Positions 2,914 to 4,666 of a stretch of DNA of 4,666 nt are shown piece by piece (position 1 is the stretch's first letter; each line of letters opens with the position of its first letter). The stretch is taken from IMG/VR virus record IMGVR_UViG_2534682252_000033; one strand, 5' to 3'. This DNA is from a virus. Lineage: Duplodnaviria > Heunggongvirae > Uroviricota > Caudoviricetes. The translations under genes were made by a program, and so were the position numbers. A model generated the notes under the pieces. The model ran no database searches, was not told the DNA's origin, and was given only the letters and a program-made list of their open reading frames with translations.

Positions 2914-3678
2914 TTATGCTGCCGGTGCATTTATCTCCAGCATCAGACTTTCTATCTCAACGCCATACGCTGCATTTTTTGTAACATCCGTCAGCGTCAG
3001 CGCATTCAGTCCCAGTGTCAGACTGTCTTTTATAACCTGGAATGCCGGGCCAGCCACTCCATTCAGTTTCGGAGTAACCATGGCACTGCCGGCGGTGAAC
3101 ACCAGCTCCAGCGTCTGCCAGTCGTTACCGTAATCGCCGAACTCCCCCAGCTTCGTGTTTCCGGCTTTCCTGTGATGCATCAGATTCACTCTGCCGTCAG
3201 TGGTCTGAGTGAAGTACGACATCAGGAACGGATTACCGGTACCCGTCATCGCCACACCATCAGGAACGGGAGCATCCGTATACAGATAAATCCCCAGCCC
3301 GAACTGATTGTTGGTCAGTGCGCCTGACAGGCGGAACTTACAGGTCAGTCTGCCGCCCTGTGTCAGCAGGGTAATTGCGTCATCCACCGGATGCGTCAGG
3401 GACCAGGTTTTATTGCTCTGCCTGGTGATCTTAAATACACCATCTGACAACTGAATTCCGCCATCCTTAATGCTCCAGCCCTGCGCAGCAGCCTCTCCGG
3501 CTGCCGGCAGCAGGGAGATTGTGCGAACGGACGTATCTGCAGACGGACCCGATGGCGTGTTGCCGCCGGGCGAGGGTTTGATTTCCGGTGCCTTACCACT
3601 GATGAAGGCTGAGGTGCGCCCGGCTGCGTTCAGAATAGCGGTTGCCAACGATCCGGAATAATGCTCCTGCGCGCCCAT
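2914..3678 (-). CDS. C-terminal portion of the NanS-p-like protein (putative beta-rich C-terminal domain), out of frame with the esterase domain; fragment of a frameshifted gene
   Basis: 254-aa ORF from its first ATG; the frame is open further upstream to 3783 with no start codon or Shine-Dalgarno, so it is unlikely to be an independent gene. Together with 3815..4666 and the bridging frame 3630..3839 it spans at least 584 codons, consistent with a single multi-domain NanS-p-like gene of the size I recall (about 600 to 650 aa). Confidence 0.5.
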   Translation of the reverse strand: MGAQEHYSGSLATAILNAAGRTSAFISGKAPEIKPSPGGNTPSGPSADTSVRTISLLPAAGEAAAQGWSIKDGGIQLSDGVFKITRQSNKTWSLTHPVDDAITLLTQGGRLTCKFRLSGALTNNQFGLGIYLYTDAPVPDGVAMTGTGNPFLMSYFTQTTDGRVNLMHHRKAGNTKLGEFGDYGNDWQTLELVFTAGSAMVTPKLNGVAGPAFQVIKDSLTLGLNALTLTDVTKNAAYGVEIESLMLEINAPAA

Positions 3679-3814
3679 GAACTGAAATGTGTCGGGCGGT
3701 TTGATGATACCTGGTTTCCATTCGTTCTCGATGCCGCACCGTAATATCCTGATGCCGGAATATCCGGATCTTCTGCCGGCGCGTTAGTGGCGGTATTGAC
3801 GCCGTTACCGTCTG

Positions 3815-4666
3815 TCATGAAGGGCACAAATAAACGCCCTCACTCTCCCTGTTTTTATACCCGCCGTACACGGTGTCGTACTGGGTAGCGTATGTATTTT
3901 TCCAGTAATACGTCGTGTCACCACAAATCCACGGCACATCTGCAGCACTGCCACCATGGCACTGCGCGTTAAACACGGAGAGGTCAGCACGAAACTGTGT
4001 CAGCATGGCTGTAAACAGCGCAGGTTGCTGTGCGTGGGTGGCGGCGCTCATGTCAAACTCTCCCTGCATCCAGCACACCGCCAGCAACACATTTTTCGGG
4101 TTCTTCTGTAATGCAGCTTTGGTGCGCGCAATCAGGTCCTGATATAACGGTTTACCCACACCCCAGCGCGCCGAATCCTGGCTGGCCCCCGTGGACTCGC
4201 TGAATATCCCCTCCGCGCCCTGGGTAAATGCCGAACCACCACGACAGCATGGTACCAGCAGGATCCCCGCGTTATTCGGGATATACGGGAGCAGTTTTTT
4301 GGCAATATGTAACCCCTGGCCGACACAGCCGTACTGCCCTTTGCTCAGGTCTGCCTTCGGATGATTCAGCGTACTCATATCCTGCACATCATGCAGGCAG
4401 TGGTCAGCCGGAATAATATCGTTATATCTGCAGGCAGCCCCGCCCGGCGTCACTGTACTGCGGCGCGCCAGCTGTTTAATGCGCGGATCCGGAGCATCGT
4501 ATGAATCCGGCAGCGGAAGCCCTTCACCGTAAGCCATGGCATTGGACTGCCCGGCCAGTACGATGACGTAGTACCAATCCGGCTCAGATGAAGGGCCGAC
4601 CTGTGGCTCTCCTTCAATAGCCACCGCCTGCATCAGTGTGTACGGCGTAATGGCAACCGGTCCGCC
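3815..4666 (-). CDS. nanS: Prophage NanS-p-like sialate O-acetylesterase, SGNH/SASA esterase domain; 5' end beyond the window; reading frame terminates at 3815 (gene appears frameshifted)
   Basis: The frame is open from the window edge (codons before the track's Met at 4633 read GGPVAITPYTL with no stop). It contains YYVIVLAGQSNAMAYGEGLPLPDSYDAPDPRIKQLARRSTVTPGG and a later WMQGEFD block, which match the GQSN motif and overall pattern of the NanS/YjhS sialate O-acetylesterase family as I remember it. Position just upstream of the holin is typical for nanS-p genes in lambdoid/Stx prophages. Confidence 0.8.
   Translation of the reverse strand, partial: GGPVAITPYTLMQAVAIEGEPQVGPSSEPDWYYVIVLAGQSNAMAYGEGLPLPDSYDAPDPRIKQLARRSTVTPGGAACRYNDIIPADHCLHDVQDMSTLNHPKADLSKGQYGCVGQGLHIAKKLLPYIPNNAGILLVPCCRGGSAFTQGAEGIFSESTGASQDSARWGVGKPLYQDLIARTKAALQKNPKNVLLAVCWMQGEFDMSAATHAQQPALFTAMLTQFRADLSVFNAQCHGGSAADVPWICGDTTYYWKNTYATQYDTVYGGYKNRESEGVYLCPS

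Follow-up and report, generated by a model that had tools for sequence, protein, structure and literature searches.

A prophage nanS-p-type esterase gene divided among three reading frames by two apparent single-base deletions

Chromosomal NanS (YjhS) of Escherichia coli is a 9-O-acetyl-Neu5Ac esterase of solved structure (3PT5), for which PMC9063846, citing Rangarajan 2011, gives Ser19 and His301 as catalytic residues. The catalytic role of the SGNH histidine block has been described (PMC9063846, PMC10462455), and RPTH is listed as a variant of this block in NanS-p (PMC10462455). NanS-p proteins are encoded by the Shiga toxin (Stx) phages 933W (z1466) and phi24B (vb_24B_21, also called gp84), their domain diversity is already on record (PMC10462455), and multiple functional copies are present in EDL933 and O104:H4 (PMC8065619). 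In gp84 of phi24B, DUF1737 was recently reported as a capsid-decoration domain, the esterase and lectin domains being removed from it by cleavage (bioRxiv 10.64898/2026.04.10.717836). Intact nanS-p genes encoding 616 amino acids are found in non-Stx lambdoid prophages of enterohemorrhagic and Shiga toxin-producing E. coli (EHEC and STEC), as exemplified by WP_136858500.1 (E. coli O157:H7 FWSEC0004) and WP_032212668.1 (O121). Here we report on a disrupted gene of this kind in viral record IMGVR_UViG_2534682252_000033 of IMG/VR, a stretch of 4,666 nucleotides (nt) that was analyzed in full and is referred to below as the window. An earlier note, based on the letters of the window alone, had recognized one NanS-p-type esterase gene with two frame changes between 2914 and 4666 and had proposed that it was either a pseudogene or the product of sequence error, a pair of alternatives that our analysis upholds.

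Comparison with intact genes indicates that this region is almost certainly a single nanS-p gene broken by two 1-nt deletions, at 3828-3830 and at 3647/3648 (Table 1). A megablast search of positions 2800-4666 against 5,426 finished E. coli genomes gave near-full-length matches in 1,391 of them. The best match had 99.7% DNA identity across 1,867 nt, and its annotation shows one gene of 1,851 nt, named "SASA family carbohydrate esterase". Alignment to intact genes, which the earlier note had proposed as a check, was carried out base by base with five intact nanS-p copies and placed the breaks: against all five 1851-nt copies, the same two 1-nt gaps appeared inside the gene, 182 nt apart, with no further defect. 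Re-inserting both bases produced one open frame over residues 33-616 with a single amino acid difference, T562M (99.8% identity to the intact protein). This difference (position 3080) was considered as a third private change hinting at decay and was ruled out, because T562M is a common natural allele present in 286 finished records. As a separate observation, a GATC (Dam) site lies at 3650-3653, 2 nt from the second deletion point; if the source were a nanopore assembly, a methylation-motif basecalling error near this site would be a conceivable cause of deletion 2, which is pure speculation on our part.

The gene lies on the minus strand, running from 4666 to 2914, and it is colinear with the intact 616-amino-acid nanS-p of E. 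coli lambdoid prophages; its first 32 codons fall beyond the window. Three distinct minus-strand frames are involved, as the earlier note had described: the first is open from the window end at 4666 to a TGA at 3817-3815, the second from 3839 to 3630, and the third from 3783 to 2914. Positions 3784-3814 are open in neither the first nor the third frame, and therefore at least two frame changes are required. The note had drawn the same conclusion, giving the length of this uncovered stretch as 32 nt; it measures 31 nt. The first piece is identical to WP_136858500.1 across residues 33-311. Whereas a NanS-p gene is expected to form a continuous open reading frame (ORF) of about 616-657 codons, the window has three frames and two premature stops.

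Table 1. Features of the nanS-p locus and of the adjoining lysis genes in the 4,666-nt window.
Feature	Position	Strand	Description
nanS-p segment 1 (first frame)	3831..4666	-	Native residues 33-311: DUF1737 tail and N-terminal four-fifths of NanS-like SGNH esterase domain
Frameshift 1	3828..3830	-	T4 -> T3 (plus strand AAA), 1-nt deletion at Y311/F312 codons; intact GTTTATTTTGTG -> window GTTTATTTGTG
Premature TGA closing first frame	3815..3817	-	Comes after four out-of-frame codons (LCPS)
nanS-p segment 2 (second frame)	3648..3830	-	Native residues 312-372: C-terminal esterase part, block RPTH with His359
Imperfect near-duplication	3730..3765	-	Ordinary coding sequence (encodes ...DPDIPASGYYGAAS...), identical in intact homologues
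Frameshift 2	3647..3648	-	One base lost in between; intact minus strand GATCGTCTGGCAAC -> window GATCGTTGGCAAC; not a homopolymer
Second-frame stop codon	3630..3632	-	Comes after out-of-frame residues WQPLF
nanS-p segment 3 (third frame)	2914..3647	-	Native residues 373-616 and stop: esterase end, linker, C-terminal lectin-like jelly-roll domain
Lectin-like jelly-roll domain	about 2926-3504	-	Pfam DUF6645 about 3034-3366
Class II holin	2466-2260	-	
Lysozyme	1572-1039	-	
Rz with embedded Rz1	760-236	-	

Domain searches assigned the pieces to successive parts of one protein. Pfam matched the first frame to SASA and the third to DUF6645 (E=1.8e-18), and a Pfam search with the middle frame gave no match; in phmmer, that middle frame aligned to positions 273-326 of 3PT5, including the histidine (E=1.7e-10). 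In the intact homologue, Pfam recognizes DUF1737 (residues 3-49), SASA, and DUF6645, and only the last ~17 residues of DUF1737 are inside the window, which begins at residue 33. Residues 60-379 of the intact protein align to the NanS/YjhS esterase 3PT5 (E=1.5e-121), and residues 421-613 match 6YP6, the solved C-terminal domain of phi24B NanS-p (E=2.5e-29); the third frame of the window likewise matches 6YP6 "NanS-p" (E=2.1e-30). The nucleophile Ser73, within GQSN, is encoded in the first frame (codon 4546-4544), and His359, within RPTH, is encoded in the second (codon 3689-3687) and aligns with the catalytic His301 of NanS, the equivalence of Ser73 and His359 being drawn with the 11-residue tag offset of chain 3PT5_A. 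Both the GQSN serine and the R-x-x-H histidine block characteristic of NanS-p are therefore present, but in different frames, and the C-terminal lectin-like jelly-roll domain (6YP6 / DUF6645) is present as well. On these domain matches, the gene is a predicted prophage sialate O-acetylesterase gene, nanS-p, encoding DUF1737, then a NanS-like SGNH esterase, and then a lectin-like C-terminal domain. The NCBI Prokaryotic Genome Annotation Pipeline names near-identical 616-amino-acid nanS-p proteins either "SASA family carbohydrate esterase" or "DUF6645 domain-containing protein" (RefSeq homologues, coding sequence [CDS] 505-2355), and this inconsistent naming could mislead gene-content comparisons.

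The window gene shares with the intact 616-amino-acid alleles its DNA sequence (99.7% identity), its three-domain architecture, and its site upstream of genes for a class II holin, lysozyme, and Rz/Rz1, and it differs from them in lacking two single bases and in having its ORF split into three frames. With the NanS-p proteins of 933W and phi24B it has in common the family, the domain order, and the 6YP6-type C-terminal domain, and its block IV variant, RPTH, is that of Stx2a prophage 86 (PMC10462455). In contrast to the 933W and phi24B proteins, the window allele is shorter (616 versus 636-657 amino acids), has a C-terminal region of a different sequence group, and is frameshifted; in addition, the gene of its closest relatives lies downstream of tRNA, TerB, and DUF3927 genes and not of stx. 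The nucleophile serine (GQSN) and catalytic histidine of chromosomal NanS are conserved (PMC9063846), although NanS itself has neither DUF1737 nor the lectin-like domain, and in the window the NanS-homologous region is interrupted twice. The locus also resembles other disrupted nanS-p genes (CTR3, IS600/IS3, and NC_049952) in that one copy of a multi-copy cargo gene is broken and its neighbors are intact, but its lesions are two point deletions, unlike those of the copies interrupted by insertion sequences (IS). It is, then, a frameshifted allele of a well-characterized family, and nothing about it is new in kind.

The earlier note had also pointed to an imperfect tandem near-duplication as a plausible indel site. 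The near-repeat exists, as GATGCCGCACCGTAATATCC at 3730-3749 and GATGCCGGAATATCC at 3751-3765, and a repeat search returned it as a two-copy 15-nt pair of 87% identity, a class of short pair that the search tool itself cautions is often due to chance. The window shows zero differences from intact genes anywhere between 3648 and 3828, and the near-repeat is therefore native coding sequence; the ...DPDIPASGYYGAAS... stretch encoded there aligns to chromosomal NanS as well. Because the same sequence is found in intact genes and the breaks are elsewhere, the near-duplication is ruled out as the indel site.

Translation of the sequence as written would end at 3815, giving residues 1-311 followed by LCPS, 315 amino acids in all. 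Since His359 sits after the first frameshift, this first-frame product would lack the catalytic histidine, the carbohydrate-binding domain, and the final fifth (about 68 residues) of the esterase fold, and because His359 is missing it is predicted to be enzymatically dead. The earlier note had correctly expected the truncated product to be without the C-terminal domain, the lectin-like domain being encoded in the third frame, but it had also assumed that the esterase domain would be kept, and this does not hold: the Pfam SASA match covers only profile positions 4-157 of 226, the NanS fold runs to about residue 379, and His359 is in the second frame. As sequenced, the locus is a frameshifted allele or pseudogene of the NanS-p family and not a functional member.

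We looked for the two deletions elsewhere, using 61-nt probes centered on each of them in finished E. coli genomes. The probe for deletion 1 found 3,832 homologous places in 731 finished genomes and that for deletion 2 found 3,998 in 791, with 0 exact matches in both cases. Searches of GTDB representatives, JGI metagenomes, and IMG/VR returned no sequence with both deletions and none with deletion 2 alone. Deletion 1 alone was present in one IMG/VR contig, L004 (IMGVR_UViG_2534681937_000019), which is draft-derived and carries a different allele; the intact T4 run is present in at least 120 IMG/VR contigs, versus this 1 with T3. The lysozyme gene of L004 is itself split, into ORFs of 66 and 120 amino acids, by a 1-nt deletion (GGAAGG to GGAGG), so that two frameshifts (1240 and 3026) fall within 5 kb of otherwise 99.8% identical sequence. 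This suggests that the frameshifts of L004 are sequencing errors in an error-prone draft, and the contig marks the T run of frameshift 1 as error-susceptible. Draft-derived IMG/VR contigs provided 76 nanS-p copies with enough flanking sequence; the full-length ORF was absent in 22 of these, and 17 had single-base indels, mostly at short homopolymers, with 3-6 per gene in some copies and recurrent sites at CDS nt 462, 494, 1185-1188, and 1350. In finished genomes, a net frameshift was seen in 0 of 42 full-length nanS-p copies, sampled evenly through the match ranking, and every length difference was 0 or +3. Over the whole window, the best match among finished E. coli genomes was 99.1% identical; matches among GenBank phages covered only part of the window and reached at most 96.8%, and a look-up of the window lysozyme returned thousands of contigs, none of them a closer relative.

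On balance, we consider it slightly more likely that the deletions are errors in the sequence record, the gene being intact in the organism, than that they are real mutations. In comparisons with 24-111 relatives, the window showed 0 private substitutions across its 4,666 nt and 2 private deletions. In normal divergence, substitutions far outnumber indels, and the 2:0 ratio of indels to substitutions, being unlike this, favors error. The 182-nt spacing of the deletions and their absence from finished-genome copies point towards the same reading, as do the contrast between indels in 17/76 draft-derived IMG/VR copies and net frameshifts in 0/42 copies from finished genomes, and the fact that L004, the sole other carrier of deletion 1, has a broken lysozyme gene. 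A number of observations weigh on the other side. The window contains 28 homopolymer runs of 5-7 nt, every one equal in length to its counterpart in close relatives; because errors should come first at such long runs and these are correct, a homopolymer-miscalling platform is less likely and a systematic homopolymer-error model is weakened. Deletion 2 lies outside any homopolymer, and the remaining 2.8 kb of the window is gap-free against seven relatives, so the record is not generally error-prone. Moreover, short nanS-p probes found a median of 6 places per genome, and up to 9, and nanS-p copies are functionally redundant (PMC8065619), making decay of one copy plausible. Finally, disrupted copies do occur: IS600/IS3 insertions interrupt nanS-p in finished genomes, CTR3 has a copy with an IS insertion (PMC10462455), and a split esterase annotation is present in RefSeq phage NC_049952 (bioRxiv 10.64898/2026.05.13.724894).

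The strongest alternative, to which we give a little less than an even chance, is that the gene is a genuine and very recent pseudogene, in which slippage deleted a base of the T4 run and so inactivated one of the redundant copies and a second, neutral deletion then arose in the untranslated part. Consistent with this idea, deletion 2 is downstream of deletion 1, where the sequence would already be untranslated, the neighboring lysis genes are all intact, and the other indels against relatives are intergenic or in-frame; the correct long homopolymers, the redundancy of multi-copy nanS-p (PMC8065619), and the IS-disrupted copies in finished genomes all fit it too. It accounts less well for two private indels accompanied by zero private substitutions in 4.7 kb and for the unusual nearness of the deletions to each other, and it must be set against the net frameshift in 0/42 sampled finished-genome copies and the absence of either deletion from any other finished genome. 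If the deletions are real, there is also a slim chance that the truncated product has been kept for a non-enzymatic role, as a decoration-only protein retaining DUF1737, in which case translation from an ATG at 3678 might supply the lectin-like domain as a separate product.

It is most unlikely that the large ORFs are independent genes, one encoding an esterase on its own and the other a lectin-like protein. The ATG at 3678 in the third frame does give a 254-amino-acid ORF containing the whole C-terminal domain, and DUF6645 is a separate Pfam family, but alignment to intact genes refutes this interpretation: the three pieces are colinear with one 616-amino-acid protein at 99.8% identity, which also answers the concern of the earlier note that the large ORFs might be unrelated, and the first break cuts the esterase domain itself in two. 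The 254-amino-acid product is not on record in a 153-billion-gene index. The note had held that the downstream frames have no start signals of their own. Start codons do exist in both (GTG at 3827 and ATG at 3678), and by direct reading GAGGG lies 9 nt upstream of the GTG; upstream of the ATG, the same direct reading for a Shine-Dalgarno-like motif revealed none, in agreement with the note, and neither start codon supports an independent gene. Least probable of all is programmed recoding, by ribosomal frameshifting or transcriptional slippage, to restore the full-length protein, which has nothing positive in its favor, the first break simply being at a short T run, and which would take two separate events at sites that by direct reading offer no X XXY YYZ slippery heptamer (GUU UAU UUG UGC, site 1), a three-T run far too short for transcriptional slippage, and no repeat of any kind (GAU CGU UGG, site 2); it is effectively refuted by the lack of site conservation, every homologue examined carrying in-frame sequence.

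The window is the late region of a lambdoid prophage, with nanS-p located, as is typical of the family, upstream of the S-R-Rz lysis genes. In relatives, the order is Q antiterminator, TerB/DUF3927, nanS-p, holin, lysozyme, Rz, PerC, and terminase, and the closest relatives have no stx upstream of nanS-p. The Rz1 lipoprotein ORF (298-483, minus strand; 61 amino acids, lipobox LVVSAC) lies out of frame inside Rz (236-760), which is the usual spanin arrangement, and a 37-amino-acid ORF immediately precedes Rz (about 703-813, minus strand), its length varying among relatives by 3 nt, in frame. A 104-amino-acid ORF (1690-2004, plus strand), situated between the genes for holin and lysozyme, runs antisense to the lysis cassette; it is annotated in relatives as the 90-amino-acid hypothetical protein WP_000138558.1, and some relatives have a same-strand YdfR-family gene in its place. 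The intergenic region between nanS-p and the holin gene (2500-2915) contains two related plus-strand tandem units, at 2625-2775 and 2790-2915, with 71% column identity. In each unit, AATATnTTGACA…CTGTCTGT is present and a terminal AGCCAGC…GCTGGCT hairpin precedes a T run, which makes the unit look like a terminator, convergent with nanS-p. The fold of unit 2 had a z score of -4.45, and a minus-strand terminator-like hairpin at 2548-2522 had one of -2.9; an Rfam scan of the window gave no hit beyond a sub-threshold chance match. The same position has been reported for the prophage Pas small RNAs (sRNAs), in the order esterase-PasA/PasC-holin-lysozyme (bioRxiv 10.64898/2026.05.13.724894), and for sRNA pairs 3' of PR' (PMC4104026). 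By position, the intergenic units are candidate counterparts of these sRNAs.

For annotation, the locus should be treated as one frameshifted nanS-p and not as two or three genes, and counting the truncated product among active esterases would be wrong, given that its Pfam SASA match stops well short of the catalytic histidine. The occurrence of frameshifted copies in 17 of 76 draft-derived sequences and 0 of 42 from finished genomes implies that errors probably account for many "pseudogenes" of this kind in public drafts. NanS-p esterases serve EHEC and STEC in the use of O-acetylated mucin sialic acids; with several redundant nanS-p copies per genome, little change in phenotype would be expected even if one copy has truly been lost.
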